Part shown: one piece after another, positions 303-35,582 of the stretch
Position numbering within the stretch: the stretch's first letter is position 1
Layout of the letters: each line of letters begins with the position of its first letter
Source: Methylotenera sp.
GTDB lineage: Bacteria > Pseudomonadota > Gammaproteobacteria > Burkholderiales > Methylophilaceae
DNA length: 64,000 nt
Assembly: GCA_030682715.1 (NCBI GenBank)
Contig: JAUXNQ010000066.1
Span: forward strand, 14,587 to 78,586
Reading direction: 5' to 3'
Made by a program: the position numbers and the translations under genes
The notes under the pieces: model-generated
Seen by the model: only the letters and a program-made list of their open reading frames with translations
Database searches by the model: none
Told to the model about the DNA's origin: nothing

Positions 303-884
303 TTAGTGTGTATGTGGATGCAGGGAATGCTCATGAACTTGATCCAATGGCACTGCATCCGAATGGGGATGTTCACCCATGCCTGTCGTATTGTCACGGT
401 AGTAACTAGGGCCAACACCATCTTGTGGTGCTGGCAGCGACATCACGCCCAATCCATGCCGGTAGACTAACTCTCCACCATGCCATGCTGTGATGACGAC
501 TATACTCCATGCACCAACCACCGCAATTACAACCCACCAAACAGTGGGTGAATCTATCTTGTTATGCCAGACATCCCAACCAGCCAAAATGATTAAAACT
601 ACCGATGTTCCTAGCGCCCAGTTACGGTGGATTAACATGGCAGCGTGACTTGCATCATCATGGGTTACGCTGTTATAAGCCTGCCATCCAAAAAAAACAG
701 CTGGCAATACTGATAATGCGCTTAGCCATAATAGAGTGCGAGCAAGAACGGCAAAGTTTGTAGACAAGAACTTCTCTCGCGTTACCGTAGCCGCAATATG
801 AAAAAGAGCTGACACCGTGATAAGTGCAATTGGAAAGTGTACTATCGATGGATGCAGATTAGGTATTATTTCAGGCATTTGCAA
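303..884 (-). CDS. DUF2231-family membrane protein with His-rich C-terminal tail
   Basis: N-terminal LHPSIVHFPIAL motif, about 4 hydrophobic helices, HGGELVY motif, tail HPHS...HEHSLHPHTH; overlaps cusA 3' end. Confidence 0.75.
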   Translation of the reverse strand: MQMPEIIPNLHPSIVHFPIALITVSALFHIAATVTREKFLSTNFAVLARTLLWLSALSVLPAVFFGWQAYNSVTHDDASHAAMLIHRNWALGTSVVLIILAGWDVWHNKIDSPTVWWVVIAVVGAWSIVVITAWHGGELVYRHGLGVMSLPAPQDGVGPSYYRDNTTGMGEHPHSDAVPLDQVHEHSLHPHTH

Positions 885-3800
885 CCTCTTTCCTTTGGAG
901 TGATCTTTGTTTCACAAGTGCGTAAATCGCTGGGATTACGATGAGCGTCAGCACAGTGGCGGATACCATACCTCCTACCATAGGGGCAGCGATACGCCGC
1001 ATTAGCTCTGAACCTGTTCCGCTACTCAACATAACTGGAAACAGGCCTACGATACTTCCAGCAACAGTCATCATTACTGGACGTATCCGGTACACTGAGC
1101 CCTGCACCACTGCGGCGTAAATATCCGCTTGGGTGAGTTGCTCGCTCGCTGCTTCACGCTTTGCTTTGATCTCTTCAAGAGCCTGATTTAGATATACCAA
1201 CATCACCATGCTGGTTTCGGCTCCAATACCGATTAAACCAATGAAACCTACTGCCGCCGCTATGCTCAGGTTGTAATCAAGCCAATACATCAGCCAGACG
1301 CCCCCGACCACGGAGAAAGGTACAGACAGCATTACCATCAGAGTCTCGCTAAAACGATTGAAATTCAAATATAGAAGTACGAATACAATCAGGATGGTGA
1401 TTGGTAATACGACCTTCAACTTTTCAATGGCGCGCTGCATGTACTCAAATTGGCCGCTCCAACTGATGTAATAGCCAGGAGGAAACTTAACCTGTTCACG
1501 AACTGCTTTTTGCGCGTCGGCAACATAACTACCAATATCTCGATCACGAATATCAACAAAAATATATGCTGACAGCAACGCGTTCTCAGTACGTATGCTT
1601 GGCGGACCTTTAACCAGCTTAACCTGTGCAAGTTGCCCAAGCGGTATCATCGCGGCTCCCATGGTTGGCACCAGCACCTGCGTGGCAATTGCCTGCGGAT
1701 CACTTCTCATGTCTCGAGGGTAGCGCACGTTAACGCCAAAGCGCTCGCGACCTTCCACCGTAGTAGTGACCATTTCACCACCTAGCGCCACCGAAACCAC
1801 ATCCAAAAGATCACCAACAGCCAATCCATAGCGAGATAGTGCCTCTCGGTCTGGAACTACATCCAAATAGTATCCGCCAGTAATACGTTCGGCATAGGCG
1901 CTTGTTGTTCCAGGTACTGTTTTAACAACGGCCTCAATCTGTTTAGCGAGAATTTCCATCTCGGTCAGATCCTTACCGAACACTTTGATACCAATCGGTG
2001 TTCGTATACCAGTGGATAGCATATCAGTTCTAGCCTTAATTGGCATAGTCCAGGCGTTACTTACCCCAGGCATTTGAACCGCTTTATCAAGCTCATCAAT
2101 TAACTTGTCGATAGTCATGCCGGGGCGCCACTGATCTTCAGGTTTGAGGTTGATAATAGTCTCAGCCATCTCCAAAGGTGCAGGGTCGGTAGCAGTATTT
2201 GCCCGCCCCGCCTTGCCGAAGACAGACTCCACCTCAGGAAAGCTTTTGATAATCTTATCCTGTGTCTGCAACAGTTCCGCTGCCTTAGTGACAGAAATGC
2301 TTGGCAATGTCGACGGCATGAAAAGCAGCGTGCCTTCATTCAAGGTCGGCATAAATTCCGTACCCAGTTTGAGCGCTGGATAAGCAGTCACCCCAAGCAA
2401 TGCAATTGCTGATAGGACGATAAAACCTTTCCATCGCATCACCCAGAACATTACTGGCCTATACAACCAAATCATCACGCGCACTAATGGATTGTTCTGT
2501 TCGGATGGAATTCGCCCACGAACCAGCAGCAATATCAACACTGGTACCAGCGTAATCGAAAGCAAAGCAGCGCCAGCCATAGCTAATGTTTTCGTATAGG
2601 CAAGAGGCAGAAACATCCGTCCTTCTTGAGCCTCCAGTGTAAACACTGGTAGAAACGATACTGTAATAATCAATAAACTGAAGAACAGTGACGGACCAAC
2701 CTCCTGGCATGCTTTAATAATTGCATCTATACGATTCTTGCCAGGTGATAAGCGTTCGAGATGCTTGTGCGAGGTTTCAATCATCACGATTGCTGCATCG
2801 GTCATCTCTGCAATAGCAATGGCAATGCCACCTAAACTCATGATGTTGGAATTTAAGCCCAAGAATCGCATCGCAATGAAGGCAACCAAAACGCCAATCG
2901 GTAGCATTATGATAGCCACAAGCGCACTGCGTACGTGCATAAGAAATACTACGCACACCAATGCAATAATGATGCCCTGTTGGATAAGAGTCTCACTTAG
3001 CGTGCTGATAGCACGATGAATCAACCCTGAACGGTCATACACGGCCTGAATTGAAACACCTTCTGGTAGGCCCGATGAAATCTCGTTGATTTTATTTTTT
3101 AGATTATGAATGACATCAAGTGCATTCTGCCCATGTCGTGCCACGGCGATGCCGCCAACCGCTTCGCCTTCTCCATTTAACTCTGCAATTCCTCTACGCT
3201 CGTCTGGAACCATTTCAACTCGGGCAACATCGCGCAAGAGCACTGGCGTACCCATGTCAGCCTTAACTACCAAAGTCTCAAGGTCGCTAATCCCGCGTAG
3301 ATAGCCCCTACCTCTAACGACATACTCAGTCTCTGCCATCTCAATTGCTCGACCGCCGACATCGCGGTTGCTCATGGCAATGACATTAGAAACTGTCTTG
3401 AGCGATATACCATAAGTCTGCAAACGTTGTGGGTTGACGGTAACCTGATAAGACTTTACAAAACCACCTATACTGGCTATCTCAGCGACTCCATGTGCCT
3501 TGGTCAATTGATAACGGACAAACCAATCTTGAATAGAGCGCAGTTCATCAAGGGTCTTATGCTTGGCTGTAACAACATATTGATAAACCCAACCTACGCC
3601 AGTAGCATCAGGACCTAACGAAGGCGTGATTCCCTTGGGTAATCTTCCCGCAGCAAAATTCAGGTACTCCAGCACACGCGAGCGTGCCCAGTAGATATCA
3701 GTCCCGTCTTCAAAGATGACATACACGAACGAAGCACCGAAGTTGGAAAATCCACGCACGACTTTGGATTTAGGTACCGACAGCATAGCTGTAGTGAGCG

Positions 3801-4002
3801 GGTATGTAACTTGGTCTTCCACTACCTGTGGTGCCTGCCCAGGATATTCCGTATACACGATGACCTGTACATCCGAGAGATCAGGAATCGCGTCGATTGG
3901 CGTGTTGATGACGCTATATATGCCCCAGGCTACGATAAAAAGTGTTCCGAGCAATACTAAAAAAACATGTCGAACTGACCATTCAATTATTTTATTGAGC
4001 AT
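871..4002 (-). CDS. cusA: CusA-type Cu(I)/Ag(I) RND efflux permease
   Basis: DAIPDLSDVQV and LGPDATGVGW motifs; Met-triad equivalents EFMP, PLEM, WTMP. Start reassigned to ATG at 4002 (MLNKIIEWS), 1 nt after the cusB stop; the ORF-track extension to 4131 overlaps cusB. Confidence 0.93.
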   Translation of the reverse strand: MLNKIIEWSVRHVFLVLLGTLFIVAWGIYSVINTPIDAIPDLSDVQVIVYTEYPGQAPQVVEDQVTYPLTTAMLSVPKSKVVRGFSNFGASFVYVIFEDGTDIYWARSRVLEYLNFAAGRLPKGITPSLGPDATGVGWVYQYVVTAKHKTLDELRSIQDWFVRYQLTKAHGVAEIASIGGFVKSYQVTVNPQRLQTYGISLKTVSNVIAMSNRDVGGRAIEMAETEYVVRGRGYLRGISDLETLVVKADMGTPVLLRDVARVEMVPDERRGIAELNGEGEAVGGIAVARHGQNALDVIHNLKNKINEISSGLPEGVSIQAVYDRSGLIHRAISTLSETLIQQGIIIALVCVVFLMHVRSALVAIIMLPIGVLVAFIAMRFLGLNSNIMSLGGIAIAIAEMTDAAIVMIETSHKHLERLSPGKNRIDAIIKACQEVGPSLFFSLLIITVSFLPVFTLEAQEGRMFLPLAYTKTLAMAGAALLSITLVPVLILLLVRGRIPSEQNNPLVRVMIWLYRPVMFWVMRWKGFIVLSAIALLGVTAYPALKLGTEFMPTLNEGTLLFMPSTLPSISVTKAAELLQTQDKIIKSFPEVESVFGKAGRANTATDPAPLEMAETIINLKPEDQWRPGMTIDKLIDELDKAVQMPGVSNAWTMPIKARTDMLSTGIRTPIGIKVFGKDLTEMEILAKQIEAVVKTVPGTTSAYAERITGGYYLDVVPDREALSRYGLAVGDLLDVVSVALGGEMVTTTVEGRERFGVNVRYPRDMRSDPQAIATQVLVPTMGAAMIPLGQLAQVKLVKGPPSIRTENALLSAYIFVDIRDRDIGSYVADAQKAVREQVKFPPGYYISWSGQFEYMQRAIEKLKVVLPITILIVFVLLYLNFNRFSETLMVMLSVPFSVVGGVWLMYWLDYNLSIAAAVGFIGLIGIGAETSMVMLVYLNQALEEIKAKREAASEQLTQADIYAAVVQGSVYRIRPVMMTVAGSIVGLFPVMLSSGTGSELMRRIAAPMVGGMVSATVLTLIVIPAIYALVKQRSLQRKEVANA

Positions 4003-4003
4003 A

Positions 4004-5344
4004 TCAATGCCCCTTGTGTTCAGAATTGACAGTAGGGGTTGCTGGTTTATCGGTCTCGGATTTGTCCTGTTTGCCATGAGCCGAATGCCCGAAGCCTCCA
4101 ATTGCTGCCTTAAGATTACTTTCTGCATCAATCAGGAAATTGGCACTGACAACAACATTCTCTCCTGCACTTAAGCCTTCAATAACTTCAACATATCCAT
4201 TGCCGCGCATGCCGAGCTTGACGTCGCGTGGTTCGAACAGGCCTTCAGCGCGCTGTATTAGCACGATTTGGCGCGTACCGCTATCGAGTACGGCAGAGTC
4301 TGGTACCATTAAAGCATCGGCTTTGCCGTGGCCTGAGACTAATTGTACGGTGGCATACATCTCGGGCTTGAGTATTCCGTTTGGATTGTCGAGTTCGACA
4401 CGTATTTTGGCGGTCCGTGTCTCGGGTGTGACTGTCGGATAGATATAGGAAACTTTGCCAGTTAAAACTTTATCTGGATAAGCATTAACGCTGATATTCA
4501 CCGACTGCCCAACATGCACTAGTGCCAGATCTTGCTCAAACACATCAGCGAGAAGCCAGATTGATGAAAGGTCAGCAATCTTGAATAACGGCTCACCTGG
4601 CATGAAACGTATACCCGCTACTGCCATTTTTTCCAACACAACGCCATTAGCAGGGGAATACAATGTCAGCGTACGAGTTGCCTTACCATCTTTTATCAAG
4701 CGCTGTAACTGGGCATCGGAAATGTCCCAGTTACGGAGACGTTTGAGAGCACTTTCTGCCAATCGGCTGACACCAACCAGCGACTCCTCTGTACCGCTAC
4801 TTAACGATTGGCGACCATTCCAGGCGATCAGGTATTCCTCTTGCGCTGAAACTAATTCTGGGCTGTACACTTCCATCAGCGGCTGTCCGCGTTTTACTGG
4901 CTGACCAGTAGCGTTGACATGAAGCTTTTCAATATAACCCTCAAACTTCGTCGTAACTGTGTGCAGACGTCTTTCATCCAACTGAAACTGGCCAACAGCA
5001 CGCACCGTCTGGACTAATTCACGTAGTGCAGCTGGCTCTGTCCTCACCCCCAACTTCTGCACCTTCTCAGGGCTGATCTTGATTTGACCAGACTGCACTT
5101 CATCACCTTCATAGACTGGAATATAATCCATGCCCATAGAATCTTGTTTAGGTTCAGGTGATGTATCTGACAAACCCATCGGATTGCGATAATAGAGAAT
5201 TTTCTTTGTGGCGGATATAGAAGTGCCCGTTGAGACTTCGGTCGATGACTTGTTTGATTGCTTTAATCCCAACCAGTAACCGCCCCATGTGGCAACAGCA
5301 ATGCCAATTAGCGCTAGTGCAACCCATATTACAGAGCGTTTCAT
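4004..5344 (-). CDS. cusB: CusB-type RND periplasmic adaptor with N-terminal heavy-metal-binding domain
   Basis: YYRNPMG...DSMGMDYIPVY metal domain, GQPLMEVYSPEL and RTAKIRVELDN adaptor motifs. Confidence 0.9.
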   Translation of the reverse strand: MKRSVIWVALALIGIAVATWGGYWLGLKQSNKSSTEVSTGTSISATKKILYYRNPMGLSDTSPEPKQDSMGMDYIPVYEGDEVQSGQIKISPEKVQKLGVRTEPAALRELVQTVRAVGQFQLDERRLHTVTTKFEGYIEKLHVNATGQPVKRGQPLMEVYSPELVSAQEEYLIAWNGRQSLSSGTEESLVGVSRLAESALKRLRNWDISDAQLQRLIKDGKATRTLTLYSPANGVVLEKMAVAGIRFMPGEPLFKIADLSSIWLLADVFEQDLALVHVGQSVNISVNAYPDKVLTGKVSYIYPTVTPETRTAKIRVELDNPNGILKPEMYATVQLVSGHGKADALMVPDSAVLDSGTRQIVLIQRAEGLFEPRDVKLGMRGNGYVEVIEGLSAGENVVVSANFLIDAESNLKAAIGGFGHSAHGKQDKSETDKPATPTVNSEHKGH

Positions 5345-6645
5345 AAATCTTCCCCAATCATTTTTTCAATCTCAGCAAAGCGCATTTCTTGCTCCACTCT
5401 GGCTCTTATTTGGCCTTGTCTCGCAAGTCTTATTGCTTTTTGTGCATCGAGCAGTGTAGCGAAGTCAACCTTGCCATTTTCGTATCCAGCCAATGCCGAG
5501 CGGAAGGTCAACTCTGCTTGTGGGAGTAATGTATAAGTGATCAGCCGCCCTTGTTTTTCTGCTGCCTCGAAAGCTACTAGGTTTTCTTGCAACTCGCCTA
5601 TTACCTGATTCTCCACTCCGTTACGGCGCTCTTTGGCTGCATCCAGCATAGCGGCAGCCTCACTCTCCTGAGATCTACGAGTATCGAACTGGATTGGAAT
5701 ATTGACCTCCACCATCGCCTCCCAGCTACTGATATTGCCACCACGCTGAGTAGGGGCAATGCCAAGCATTAGATCCGGGTAACGATTCTTTTCTATTAAT
5801 CGCTTGTTAGCGTCTGCGGTCAATATTTGTGCTGATTGTGTAGCAAGTAGTGGATTATTTCGTACCACCTTTTCCTGCAGGACCGCAGTATCCAGCTTTT
5901 CTAGCGGTAAACGACGCAACTCTGGTAACGTGGAAAGCGCTGCACTCTGCGTGCGCCCAAGTGTTGCATTAAGGCGTGACTTAGCCTGTTGCTGTTCAGT
6001 TTCCAGAACAATAATTTCGGACTGCAAGGTGGTTTTTTCAACCTGAGCGCGAATCGCATCTTGCTGGGGTACTAAACCACTGGCATAGCGAACGCGAGTG
6101 ACAGATTCAAGATCACTTAGCAAAGTTAAAATATCCTCGTTAAGCTTCTTCAGGCCAATAGCCTGAAAATACTGGGCATAAGCGTTTTTGATACGGGCGT
6201 GGGTTTCGGCAACGCTGATTAGCCTGCGTCCTTTAAACTGCTCAAGCTGTGCAGTAGCCACTTCCCTGCGTAAGTCACGCTTTCCCCAAAGGGGAATGTT
6301 CTGCATTAAAGTGTATTTAGTTCCACTTCCTTTGCCAAAAAAAGGATTAAATCCATCTGGCGCATCTCGTCCTGCAAAATCCATTAACTCGACGCGTAGC
6401 AACGGGTCAGGCAGCGCACCTGCTGGCGCGATTCGCTCGCTCGCTGCATCAGTTTCATATCTCATTGCCGCAAGCTCAGGGTTGTGCGTGTCTGCCCAGT
6501 TCAGTAATTCCTGCACATTGGCACCGATAGCGTTGCTGGAAGGAACGTCTTCCGCCGATGAAAGCCCTGGCAACATGAATGCTACTAAGGTCAGAACGAG
6601 CATTGTTTTTGAATTGTTTATATACATTATCTTACCTGTATTCAT
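5341..6645 (-). CDS. TolC-family outer-membrane efflux protein (CusC role)
   Basis: Signal peptide, HNPEL, ALPDP, YASGLV and YENGKVDFATLL repeats; directly upstream of cusB with ATGA overlap. Confidence 0.88.
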   Translation of the reverse strand: MNTGKIMYINNSKTMLVLTLVAFMLPGLSSAEDVPSSNAIGANVQELLNWADTHNPELAAMRYETDAASERIAPAGALPDPLLRVELMDFAGRDAPDGFNPFFGKGSGTKYTLMQNIPLWGKRDLRREVATAQLEQFKGRRLISVAETHARIKNAYAQYFQAIGLKKLNEDILTLLSDLESVTRVRYASGLVPQQDAIRAQVEKTTLQSEIIVLETEQQQAKSRLNATLGRTQSAALSTLPELRRLPLEKLDTAVLQEKVVRNNPLLATQSAQILTADANKRLIEKNRYPDLMLGIAPTQRGGNISSWEAMVEVNIPIQFDTRRSQESEAAAMLDAAKERRNGVENQVIGELQENLVAFEAAEKQGRLITYTLLPQAELTFRSALAGYENGKVDFATLLDAQKAIRLARQGQIRARVEQEMRFAEIEKMIGEDL

Positions 6646-6686: not shown

Positions 6687-7016
6687 TTATTTAAGCGGTT
6701 TTATTTTTGTAATCAATGGACCGCCACCGTCAACTTTAACGAACTCAAATTCAACCTGATCTCCAACTTTTACCGTATCCAGCAGAGTCTTGTCAGCTAC
6801 GTTAAAAAACATGGTCATACCAGGCCATTGAAGCTCTGGAACAGCGTCATGCTTCAATTTAACCTTGCTTAATGCACCGTCCACGGCAACTACTTCACCT
6901 TTTGCAGAATAACTCTTTTGATTACCTACAGTCTGATGGTGGGCATCGTTGGCGTAGACTGGAGCAGCAACGATACTCAATATCGCTACGAACATGCAAA
7001 TTAATAACTTTTTCAT
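6687..7016 (-). CDS. cusF: CusF periplasmic copper-binding chaperone
   Basis: Signal peptide plus LKHDAVPELQWPGMTMFF (His/Trp/Met/Met site). Confidence 0.9.
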   Translation of the reverse strand: MKKLLICMFVAILSIVAAPVYANDAHHQTVGNQKSYSAKGEVVAVDGALSKVKLKHDAVPELQWPGMTMFFNVADKTLLDTVKVGDQVEFEFVKVDGGGPLITKIKPLK

Positions 7017-7040
7017 TTCTAATGGCCTTTTTATATTAAT

Positions 7041-7070
7041 AACGCTGGGTTGGCATTGCCACCCAGCGTT
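7041..7070. terminator. Intergenic stem-loop between the Met-rich gene and cusF (partial terminator or stabiliser)
   Basis: aacgctgggt / acccagcgtt 10-bp inverted repeat; weak U-tract on the coding strand. Confidence 0.5.
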
Positions 7071-7074
7071 TTAT

Positions 7075-7461
7075 TTAGTGCTTATGCTTATCAGCACTCA
7101 TACATCCCATTTCTTTTTGCATGTGATGTTCTTTCATCATCTGCCCCATCAAGTCATCCATAAGTTTCTGATGCTCATTGATCCAGTCCTCATGCTCCTG
7201 CATTGTCATACCTGACTTCGGTTTCATCTTCTGCATCTTTCCCATGGTGTCACCCATCATTTTCATGTGCTCTTCCATCAGTTTTACTTTCTCAGCCCCA
7301 GTTGCAGCTTCTGCCTCTTTAAGCTTCTGCTTGGCTTTCAAAACTTGTTGAGTCATCTGCCTTTGAAACTCGTCCTTAGCTGCGTTCGCGGATACGGATA
7401 AAAAACTGAGACTACATACAGCAAGTATTGCAATCATTCTATTAATGTTGTGTTTTTTCAT
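7075..7461 (-). CDS. Secreted Met/His-rich helical protein, putative periplasmic Cu(I) binder
   Basis: Start at 7461 (MKKHN) with AGGAG RBS; 27-aa signal peptide ending ANA; mature 101 aa has 17 Met and 7 His by manual count. Confidence 0.75.
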   Translation of the reverse strand: MKKHNINRMIAILAVCSLSFLSVSANAAKDEFQRQMTQQVLKAKQKLKEAEAATGAEKVKLMEEHMKMMGDTMGKMQKMKPKSGMTMQEHEDWINEHQKLMDDLMGQMMKEHHMQKEMGCMSADKHKH

Positions 7462-7774
7462 GATAAATACTCCTAGTTGATAAAAGGTCACTACAGTTTT
7501 GCTTCACGAAGGAACGTCAATGTTATGCACTTGGTTAGCTGTCTATAAAAGACGTGTAAACATTGATACCCTTCGCTCTGCAATTCTTTAGAAGTGGTTC
7601 AGTATGTCGTGAAGGTATCTGTATAGGCGTGAAAAGCCATACGCTAAACCTCGAACGGATATAAAACCACCGCCGGGAATACGTGCCGAAGAAATGAAAG
7701 TGTGTTAGGTACGATCAAATACTCAGATAAGCATCTGAGTTCAAGAGCCGTTTAAAACAAGACGACCTTCGGCA

Positions 7775-8146
7775 CTATGCGAAGGTTTGCCTGGGGGGAT
7801 GAAAAAGTGAGGGTGGAACTGTGTCTGGAACTTCAGATATATCAGTGGAGTACATAGGTAATGTGCCACTAAATTCCAGAGGGGTGTTAAATGGAATAAT
7901 TGCCTGAGCTACGCTTAAATGGCAAGGCAGACACTTGTCACATGTTACATTGTTAGCTGGTTTTGCACTGTCATGGTGATCGCAGTGAGTCATATCGTCC
8001 ATATTGTTCATGTCAGCACCAACCATCATTTGGTGAGGGTCGTGCATTTGACAATTAGGCATAGCCACAGCTGCAATGCCTTCTAAGGGGAGGCATATCA
8101 GCATAACGAAAAGCGTAATGAATTTAATTATTGAAGTATTCACCAA
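7775..8146 (-). CDS. DUF2946/CopL/CzcI-like leader protein (CruR-like upstream ORF)
   Basis: N-terminal hydrophobic segment, His/Met/Cys-rich middle, CDKCLPCH, Pro-rich C-terminus ending HPPRQTFA; heads a metal-efflux operon. Confidence 0.65.
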   Translation of the reverse strand: MVNTSIIKFITLFVMLICLPLEGIAAVAMPNCQMHDPHQMMVGADMNNMDDMTHCDHHDSAKPANNVTCDKCLPCHLSVAQAIIPFNTPLEFSGTLPMYSTDISEVPDTVPPSLFHPPRQTFA

Positions 8147-8262
8147 ACAACTTTACGCCTAAATAAAGTTCTTTGCAATTGCTTGTACGTTCATTACTAG
8201 ATAAAACATAGAAATTTTATATATGCGTCCGTTATTGGCTGATTCCAACAGGGCAGACAACG

Positions 8263-8815
8263 TTACTGACGCGGACTTAACGTAACCACCAAGCCACGGT
8301 CGGTCACTTTCATTTCTTTTGGATAATATTATGTTGTGCCAACCTTAAGCGAATCAGCCTTTACCGTATAAAGATTAAGGCCATTCAATAACTGGCTACC
8401 TAGCATCTTAGCTAGACCTGTCATTGCATCTGCATACTTTGGCTCTACGCCATCAATCACAAAATCATCGACTTCTGCATCGTTTAGAATCACTGAGTTG
8501 CTGACAGTATCTAACTGTAAGTTGCCCGATACTGCTAGCTTCCCTGCCATTTTTTTGCCAGTGAGTTGATTCATTAACTGCGTATCAAATTTTGTATATA
8601 TCCTACCTGTCGCATGGTCAAACTTAACATTTGCATTACTTAAACTAAGATCGAACACTTTGAGCAAAGATAACGGAATCACCAGCTTTTCATTCAGCTT
8701 GGTTTGAATTTGTTGCTCGGAGATATAGACTGTTTTATTTGAGAAACCAGCACAGCCCGATTAAGATGAAAATAATCGGAAATATGAGGCTTAAGAATTT
8801 AGCATTAATCCTCAT
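8263..8815 (-). pseudogene. DUF1439-like lipoprotein pseudogene (one frameshift plus one premature stop)
   Basis: ATG 8815 MRINAKFLSLIFPIIFILI, extra G at 8756-8758 breaks the LIGC lipobox; frame resumes GCAGFSNKTVYISEQQIQ; in-frame TAA at 8329-8331, then YYPKEMKVTDRGLVVTLSPRQ to the stop at 8263. Confidence 0.75.
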
Positions 8816-35087: not shown

Positions 35088-35582
35088 TTAGCGTGCTGTA
35101 TGCGCTACGGTAAAGTCAGCACGTAATAAATTTAATATCTCACGTAACTCAGCTTTAACTTTAGCATAATCAAAAGCTTTAGCATCAGCATCTGTAGAAA
35201 CAGAACCTGACACAGTGCTTGGTGATGCTTCGTTAGCATCATGGGATTTTACTGTAGCCTGCTTATCCTGCTGACCAGACTTACCATTAAACTCTGCGAC
35301 ATCAAGGCGGTTACGAGCACCGCTAATGGTAAAGCCCTGCTCATATAACAACTCGCGAATACGGCGGATTAGCAATACTTCATGATGTTGATAATAGCGA
35401 CGATTACCGCGTCGCTTAACTGGTTTAAGTTGAGTAAACTCCTGCTCCCAGTATCTTAATACGTGGGGTTTTACACCACAAAGCTCGCTAACCTCACCAA
35501 TTGTAAAGTAGCGCTTTGCTGGAATTGGTGGCAATTGCACCTTGGCGACCTGCTCACTCATACTTTCGGCTTTCTCACTCAT
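35088..35582 (-). CDS. MerR-family regulator (ihfA-linked)
   Basis: PAKRYFTIGEVSELC..KPHVLRYWEQEF..LKPVKRRGNRRYY. Confidence 0.9.
   Translation of the reverse strand: MSEKAESMSEQVAKVQLPPIPAKRYFTIGEVSELCGVKPHVLRYWEQEFTQLKPVKRRGNRRYYQHHEVLLIRRIRELLYEQGFTISGARNRLDVAEFNGKSGQQDKQATVKSHDANEASPSTVSGSVSTDADAKAFDYAKVKAELREILNLLRADFTVAHTAR

Follow-up and report, generated by a model that had tools for sequence, protein, structure and literature searches.

What could a small reading frame and approximately 310 nt of leader RNA be doing ahead of the cus-type copper efflux operon of Methylotenera sp.? The locus lies on the minus strand of a 64,000-nt stretch of DNA, which we analysed as a whole and refer to as the window. 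From this single sequence the original prediction had read a copper-sensing arrest peptide, encoded by the leader open reading frame (ORF), whose stop codon sits in a hairpin that competes with a second, long-range helix for a shared strand. Every coordinate given for the ORF motifs, the PPR codons, the stop codon and the two helices proved correct, and the observation is confirmed as real, on evidence far stronger than one sequence could provide; the interpretation built on it is partly supported, being right in outline and conceptually less novel than was assumed. The two folds, the stop-codon hairpin H1 and the long-range helix (LR), are real, conserved and mutually exclusive, and both lie within the first 120 nt of the leader RNA. 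The features on which this rests are collected in Table 1.

Table 1. Features of the leader locus and the genes that follow it; positions are those of the window.
Feature	Position	Strand	Description
Leader ORF	7775..8143	minus	122 amino acids (aa), GTG start at 8143; remote DUF2946/CopL/CzcI relative, CutF-like under published rules
Putative export-type N-terminus	8063..8143	minus	K-containing n-region, hydrophobic core with LPL(E/Q)G, A-V-A / MPxC cleavage-like site
Cys/His/Met-rich putative metal-sensing segment	7922..8062	minus	C32, H54-C55-x-H57-H58, C69-x-x-C72-x-x-C75 (7922-7942)
F-H-P-P-R putative arrest/pause motif	7790..7804	minus	Residues 115-119, then QTFA and TAG; Pro-Pro (PP) at 7793-7798
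Hairpin H1	7760..7792	minus	Core 7786-7780 (ACCUUCG) : 7771-7765 (CGAAGGU), 7 bp; extension 7792-7789 : 7763-7760, 4 bp
Segment 2, shared strand	7766..7775	minus	GUGCCGAAGG; partner of segment 1 (H1) or segment 3 (LR)
Segment 3	7683..7692	minus	UCUUCGGCAC; LR partner of segment 2, mimics segment 1 in each lineage
Rod interior	7701..7759	minus	P1b 7759-7753 : 7707-7701; P2 7751-7745 : 7716-7711; H2 7740-7733 : 7728-7721, GCUU loop
Candidate anti-Shine-Dalgarno	7676..7682	minus	GUAUUCC, directly 3' of segment 3; complementary to GGAGUAU 7467-7473
Leader domain 2	7590..7674	minus	Outer helix 7674-7664 : 7600-7590 (GGUGGUU / AACCAC), inner hairpin 7642-7636 : 7628-7621
-35-like hexamer	8173..8178	minus	TTGCAA, overlaps 8-bp palindrome GCAATTGC
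-10-like hexamer	8150..8155	minus	TAAAGT, 17-nt spacer from -35, 6 nt before start codon; TAAAAT/TATAGT in relatives
First downstream gene	7075..7461	minus	128-aa Met/His-rich protein, signal-like N-terminus; Shine-Dalgarno GGAGUAU 7467-7473
CusF	6687-7016	minus	PF11604, E 7.9e-27
Outer-membrane factor (CusC)	5341-6645	minus	cus operon gene
CusB-like adaptor	4004-5344	minus	cus operon gene
CusA/CzcA-family pump	871-4131	minus	Resistance-nodulation-division (RND) family, 1222 bits

H1 forms between segment 1 (7792-7780) and segment 2 and holds the stop codon (7775-7777) in its 8-nt loop. Its folding energy of -12.3 kcal/mol (z -2.9) was equalled or bettered by 2 of 200 shuffles. H1 was compared across approximately 50 related leaders, which come from Methylotenera and from elsewhere in the Methylophilaceae; 47 of 50 have a hairpin that includes the stop codon. 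As the hairpin changes its register from one lineage to the next, column-wise covariation was unsuitable for H1, which was scored instead by per-sequence energies against background: a stop hairpin of -9 kcal/mol or lower is found in 72% of the leaders versus 16% of the ends of 45 other ORFs in the window. Its 5' arm begins 0-6 nt past the PP codons in all lineages. The arms take at least 12 different sequences (ACCUUCG, GAUCUUCG, UCAGCACU, UUAGCACUA, CGAUCU, CUUCAG, UCAUUC, UCACUC and others), and the last four encoded residues vary between lineages as well (QTFA, SALS, LALS, SILA and so on). As H1 is kept while both its arms and these residues change, selection acts on the pairing and not on the end of the peptide.

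The second fold joins 7775-7767 to 7691-7683 in a perfect 9-bp helix, extended to 10 bp by a G-U pair at 7766/7692, and takes from H1 five nucleotides of the 3' arm and four of the loop, including the G of the UAG. The sharing of segment 2 by the two helices makes H1 and LR mutually exclusive, as had been predicted. The irregular rod that LR closes is 93 nt long and folds at -30.5 kcal/mol (z -4.3), a value that 1 of 200 shuffles equalled or bettered. The 9-bp match of the single sequence is marginal on its own (p ~0.05 versus dinucleotide shuffles), and a test of LR with strands of variable length was noisy (Fisher p 0.002). In a model-based alignment of 43 distinct leaders, LR is paired in 95.7% of cells with four of its seven pairs changed on both sides, a covariation score reached by 0 of 500 shuffles, and slid controls are 36-59% paired. 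RNAalifold selects LR unaided. LR is found at the homologous site in lineage after lineage, with segment 3 mimicking the segment 1 of each; examples are GUGCUGAAG/CUUCAGCAC, GUGCUGA/UCAGCAC, CUGCUGAAG/CUUCAGCAG and UGCUGAGUGA/UCAUUCAGCA. No part of the leader is more conserved in sequence than segment 2, as expected of a strand with two partners. The two states lie 1.5-7 kcal/mol apart, in either direction, in six leaders representing five sequence types.

The remainder of the leader is structured as well. Within the rod H2 is 86% paired, with six pairs changed on both sides, and P2 is 85% paired; the helices of domain 2 are 91% and 92% paired, with three and two pairs changed on both sides, and its primary sequence is strongly conserved, divergent lineages included. 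Matches to the RNA model adjoin the stop codon of a leader ORF in all 12 cases found in 121 family genomes. A search of Rfam with 7000-8600 returned two sub-threshold snoRNA matches only, which we judge to be chance; the leader defines a conserved structured RNA that is not in Rfam. Two side observations concern the same region. In many relatives a UGACC-N-GGUGGUUU motif of domain 2 could give a small competing hairpin. In two leaders (L071 and L076) the usual UAG has been lost, to UGG or CAG GGC, and the ORF stops two codons later at a UGA within segment 2; both pairings, H1 or LR, are preserved there.

The peptide ahead of this RNA is also conserved. The ORF list places its start at TTG 8146, giving 123 aa (7775..8146, minus), and the start to which its relatives align is GTG 8143 and not TTG 8146, giving a leader product of 122 aa. 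Close relatives number 22, mostly from Methylotenera or other Methylophilaceae, plus one Methylococcales bin, and a profile built from them picks up 84 cluster representatives (E <= 1e-3) in a set of 1.8 billion proteins; counts for distant relatives rest on an alignment of 45 among these 84. C32, C55, C69, C72, C75, H116, P117 and P118 are invariant in 23 relatives. Among the 45 only P20, the Pro of the N-terminal LPL(E/Q)G motif, C75, P117 and P118 are invariant, with C32 and C72 at least 90% conserved, and the tail reads [FYL][HR]PP[RKIL]. Exactly five residues follow PP in 33 of the 45, and the ruler from CxxC to PP most often measures 44 residues (25 of 45). The PPR codons (7790-7798) read CCC-CCC-AGG, bases that are invariant among close relatives. 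All three are rare codons, CCC being the rarest for Pro: in the window's long ORFs CCC accounts for 5% of Pro codons and AGG for 5% of Arg codons. Purifying selection covers the whole peptide, tail included. AlphaFold2 predicts helices 4-27 and 73-82 only (predicted template modelling score 0.28), a low-confidence, non-globular model. The picture of a small Cys/His peptide with an export-type N-terminus and an invariant C-terminal PP, encoded ahead of a Met-rich protein, CusF, CusC, CusB and CusA, was thus borne out.

We propose a model in which the region is a cis-acting sensor, with an exported pausing peptide coupled to a bistable leader RNA that controls the cus operon; we consider it evenly balanced between being right and being wrong. 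A promoter with almost no 5' untranslated region (UTR) would drive the 122-aa ORF, and the Cys/His/Met-rich segment of the nascent peptide would reach the periplasm while translation continues. During transcription H1 would be the first to form. With PP in its P and A sites, a ribosome would cover segment 1 and leave segment 2 exposed, and when segment 3 has been made, 85 nt later, LR would form and persist. If the system resembles CutF, copper that binds to the exported nascent chain would prolong the pause, which would make LR the ON state for the cus operon; the copper sensor would then be a pausing ribosome and not a regulator that binds DNA. The read-out of LR is the weakest step of the model: a first guess is that LR weakens the pairing between the Shine-Dalgarno sequence (SD) and the anti-SD next to segment 3, and a second that it shields a C-rich tract from Rho. 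In this geometry a ribosome with P118 in the P site would shield about 15 nt downstream, that is all of segment 1, ending at approximately the stop codon, and a ribosome at the stop codon itself would cover segment 2 too. The near-constant five codons from PP to the stop fit such a footprint design, and the expectation that a ribosome paused on PP would cover the 5' arm of H1 and not the shared strand agrees with the positions seen. As H1 would be made first and LR only after segment 3, the switch would be kinetic, timed by the lead ribosome on PP. We infer the kinetic switch from the sequence together with known ribosome footprints; the stalling, the role of copper as its signal, the polarity of control and its output are inferred too. 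A more specific form of the model, in which a cus operon without a copper-sensing transcription factor is governed by a leaderless arrest peptide that kinetically redirects the leader RNA from H1 to the rod, is offered tentatively, and we lean against it more than towards it.

Several observations weigh against this model. LR has an advantage of 3 kcal/mol over H1 in the window and might form there regardless of the ribosome. To our knowledge HPPR is not a documented strong arrest motif. The window protein has zero matches at E <= 1 in Pfam, including DUF2946 (PF11162), the family of CruR with which it had been compared, and zero to the NCBIfam models CopL (NF033807) and CzcI (NF045614). The CXXC motif of DUF2946 is present as C69-D-K-C72, extended to C75, while the C-terminal RAPP motif of that family (PMC9426467) is not in the window protein, which has F-H-P-P-R instead, so that PP alone is common to the two. 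On the output side, an anti-SD beside segment 3 was not found in L019, L061, L070, L072, L073, L079 or L081, and it is limited to the WIN-type clade and L076. Occlusion of the start site by segment 3 was tried as another output and rejected, as the duplex energies are no better than those of shuffles (p 0.07-0.75). The predicted accessibility of the start region in the window is 0.50 in the stalled state versus 0.43 with H1, a small change that reverses in L001, L058 and L019. Downstream of segment 3 there is no conserved terminator, no hairpin plus U-tract and no conserved partner for the segment. Finally, an internal promoter within the 310-nt leader and a role in trans in the periplasm, as proposed for CzcI, are both possible.

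Kinship with known families can nevertheless be traced through the relatives. DUF2946 is matched by 20 of the 45 distant relatives (best E 1.1e-7), the CzcI model by 31 (best E 2.4e-12) and the CopL model by 22 (best E 2.2e-10). All of these scores are under the curated cut-offs (18-29 bits on the CopL and CzcI models versus cut-offs of 40 and 100), with matches that span nearly the full CopL and CzcI models. As the family models match the relatives and never the window protein itself, the link is transitive only, and by sequence comparison the window protein is a remote, transitively linked member of the DUF2946/CopL/CzcI superfamily. The CruR-like character first suggested for the peptide was overstated in this respect: the link is indirect, and FHPP(R/K) stands in place of RAPP. 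Published rules for CutF-like ORFs ask for a product shorter than 150 aa that has a signal peptide and a PP among its last 15 residues, and for a gene on the same strand within 1 kb (PMC9973294). The window protein is CutF-like under all of them, with 122-123 aa, PP 6-7 residues from the end, a 313-nt spacer to the next gene and a hydrophobic N-terminus with an AxA site and a predicted helix at 4-27.

The anti-SD relay as the output of LR has partial support. The complementarity of GUAUUCC to the SD has p 0.005-0.08 in the WIN-type clade, whose sequences are related to one another. L076 has the shortest spacer (119 nt) and an 8-bp anti-SD that adjoins segment 3, and when segment 2 is blocked the anti-SD is predicted to close the SD, with accessibility falling from 0.45-0.6 to 0.24.

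The peptide and the RNA switch could be the same and the output be attenuation of transcription, by Rho or by an intrinsic terminator, a reading that we consider unlikely though worth serious attention. With Rho, the H1 state would leave a C-rich tract at ~7676-7712 single-stranded, on which Rho would load as in CruR; with an intrinsic terminator, the extended H1 and the UUGUUUU that directly follows it (7754-7760) would terminate transcription unless a ribosome paused on PP blocks folding. In either form LR or the paused ribosome would permit read-through into the cus genes. CruR does act via Rho, most lineages have about twice as much C as G between +41 and +100, and the 313-nt spacer is far above the <100 nt at which direct melting of an SD stem-loop is expected; a Rho read-out as in CruR is possible on this analysis. 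Against it, only ~30 nt would switch from paired to free, which is short for a Rho loading site. H1 with its tail is flagged as terminator-like in a simple scan, and we considered H1 as a conserved intrinsic terminator and rejected it, as the U-tract is not conserved across lineages (L017, L019 and L058 among them) and belongs to P1b in the LR state. LR would furthermore be transcribed too late to influence termination at H1, and contigs from RNA libraries cross H1 into the leader, a weak argument in that these contigs come from relatives.

There might also be no switch at all. In that case the product would act in trans, as a CzcI/CopL-type protein that binds copper in the periplasm or membrane; H1 would be a terminator or 3'-end stabiliser, and the leader would be the structured 5' UTR of a cus mRNA made separately, from a promoter of its own. 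Purifying selection that extends beyond the tail to the whole peptide is in keeping with this, as is the thermodynamic preference for LR in the window, and the leader has promoter-like words such as TTTAGC-17-TATACA and AATTGCA. Against it, a scan of the leader detected no consensus promoter, and AlphaFold2 found no globular fold. This explanation also leaves unaccounted for the mimicry by segment 3, in every lineage, of a segment 1 that is coding and variable between lineages, as well as the fixed five codons from PP to the stop and the rare CCC-CCC-AGG, and the C-terminal codons and the rod are inherited as one module. We regard it as improbable.

H1 may instead be mainly a mechanical roadblock that prolongs the pause, with LR merely removing it. 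The base of H1 lies ~6 nt past the A-site codon when the Pro-Pro bond is pending, which is the spacing of frameshift-stimulating structures, and the start of the 5' arm close behind the PP codons in all lineages agrees with such a role. This is pure inference, it leaves the conserved rod and domain 2 unexplained and it is compatible with the switch model; as the main role of H1 we think it very improbable. An operator function of the dyad ACCTTCG-N8-CGAAGGT, as a DNA site for a regulator of the MerR/CueR type, is hardly credible: its symmetry is visible and it resembles the CueR box of E. coli copA (ACCTTCC-N7-GGAAGGT), but its arms are wholly different between lineages (UCAGCACU, UUAGCACUA, CGAUCU, CUUCAG and others), a change that a conserved DNA-binding protein would not tolerate, the third complementary segment would have no role, no -35/-10 pair flanks it on the coding strand, and CueR was not found in the genome, whose only MerR_1 protein is without a Cys sensor motif. 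The H1 dyad and the region of segment 3 were also inspected by eye as possible sigma-54 or MerR-type promoters, and these readings were set aside, as the fit is poor and the arms are unconserved.

Returning to the model of a peptide-driven switch, the context of the leader ORF bears on its first step and on its scope. The position of the -35-like and -10-like hexamers is conserved in an alignment of 15 relatives with differing upstream genes; the window pair itself scores 8/12, under the threshold of the promoter scan. As the -10 lies only 6 nt from the GTG/ATG start, the mRNA would be leaderless or near-leaderless, and the leader ORF is probably translated from such an mRNA. An AATTGCA word resembling the -35 palindrome recurs in the distal leader at ~7576-7586. 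Metatranscriptome contigs from ~90%-identical relatives bridge the ORF, H1 and the leader (7709-8072 and 7649-7853), and one such contig bridges the leader and the next gene (7402-7873); none in four runs covers 8139-8300. These contigs give no starts, ends or levels and may reflect DNA carry-over, and we draw from them neither co-transcription nor a 5' end near 8143.

Downstream of the leader ORF lie five genes; in relatives the ORF is always followed by genes of the cus type, while the upstream neighbours vary. The first of the five encodes a Met/His-rich protein of 128 aa that matches no family in Pfam or NCBIfam; most relatives have it, and in those that lack it CusF or CusC is the leading gene. 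A gene for a DUF2231 membrane protein (303-884, minus) directly follows cusA and may share the operon. It had been suggested that the element replaces a transcription factor. No CueR, no CsoR and no regulator or kinase over the curated cut-offs for CusR/CusS was found in the genome, which is 95% complete, and its sole MerR_1 protein, the one referred to above, is encoded at 35304-35507 of the window (minus); the absence of these regulators is consistent with replacement and does not prove it.

The leader ORF has a patchy distribution: 17 of the 121 family genomes sampled have it, as do 12 of 41 genera. In the last 60 nt of the ORF and the first 120 nt of the leader, L018 is 93-100% identical to the window at the nucleotide level, compared with only 45-63% over the remaining ORF, and L019 shows the reverse, with a divergent ORF and rod followed by downstream genes that are >87% identical. 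From these identities we conclude that the arrest motif with the C-terminal codons, H1 and the rod is inherited together as one mosaic module. The patchy distribution and the mosaic structure fit an accessory, horizontally exchanged module. The same genome has a second CutF-like ORF (L025 1480-1925, C17:23201-23646; 125 aa, ending QKPPIL), 39 nt upstream of another RND outer-membrane gene in a short-spacer, CutF-style layout. A hairpin in the 39-nt spacer pairs AUGAGCAU with the start region of that gene, AUGCUCAU (-22 kcal/mol, z -2.3), and this locus has the 9-mer UAGCGUAUG in common with leader domain 2 of the window.

Metal sensing by a nascent exported peptide has only two studied cases, CruR and CutF, and surveys suggest thousands of such ORFs ahead of metal-efflux operons. 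If the model holds, the present locus would give a concrete RNA mechanism for the commonest genomic context, the RND exporter, and would show how a pause five codons before a stop could be relayed over 300 nt. As the usual copper regulators are apparently absent from this lineage, the phenotype of a mutant would be clean.

In the trp leader and in mgtL and mgtP of Salmonella, the choice between a 1:2 and a 2:3 pairing depends on where a ribosome stands on a short leader ORF, and in proline-rich leader ORFs the proline codons are the pause site. The window shares the central trait of such attenuators, as the 1:2 (H1) and 2:3 (LR) pairings have segment 2 in common and both are conserved, and it differs in that the 3:4 intrinsic terminator of the trp type was not found in its leader. 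Classical leaders encode a tiny peptide and sense charged tRNA or the activity of elongation factor P in the cytoplasm, whereas the ORF of the window has 122 aa and its product would be exported and presumably report periplasmic metal.

CutF of the Rhodobacter capsulatus cutFOG operon is a close functional parallel, in which copper prolongs ribosome stalling, the structure of the mRNA changes and the downstream gene is expressed (PMC9973294; bioRxiv 10.1101/2025.02.05.636593). CutF-like ORFs are reported to stand ahead of genes for RND outer-membrane proteins more often than of any others, and genes for CusA, CusB and CusF are also among their commonest neighbours (PMC9973294). The linkage of such ORFs to RND exporters and a copper-induced polarity are already in the CutF literature: CutF itself controls a detoxification system in this way, and the polarity opposite to that of CruR, which had been suggested here for an exporter, is in concept not new (PMC9973294). 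The two differ in design. In CutF the stalled ribosome directly melts a stem-loop that covers the SD across a short spacer, whereas the spacer of the window is 313 nt and its hairpin holds the stop codon, not the SD, and competes with a conserved long-range helix. The motifs are CxxxC and PPP in CutF and CxxCxxC and FHPPR in the window. CutF and CruR are the experimental precedents for the model.

CruR (Bp2923) of Bordetella pertussis, a DUF2946 protein, controls an importer; copper relieves the stall at RAPP and Rho acts on an unstructured C-rich region (PMC9426467). Both CruR and the window have an ORF heading a copper operon, a predicted export signal, CXXC, PP near the stop and a conserved ruler, and the CruR product is described as poorly structured, like the AlphaFold2 model of the window peptide. 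The CXXC-RAPP spacing of CruR is ~45 residues, conserved to within 1-2 (PMC9426467), with RAPP 3 residues from the end; in the window FHPPR is 5 residues from the end and the spacing is 42 residues from C72 to F115 or 44 from C72 to P117, where CruR has 47 by the same count, about 3 longer. CopL of Xanthomonas and Stenotrophomonas and CzcI of Cupriavidus are likewise small, Cys/His-rich and signal-like at the N-terminus and directly precede metal-resistance operons, and a bistable leader RNA is not described for either in the literature searched. No study of a comparable long bistable leader came up in that search, and it is in this long, bistable leader RNA that the novelty of the locus appears to lie. 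If our model is correct, an arrest-peptide-driven RNA switch would be a third read-out of the DUF2946/CutF-like superfamily, beside the melting of an SD stem-loop in CutF and the shielding from Rho in CruR.

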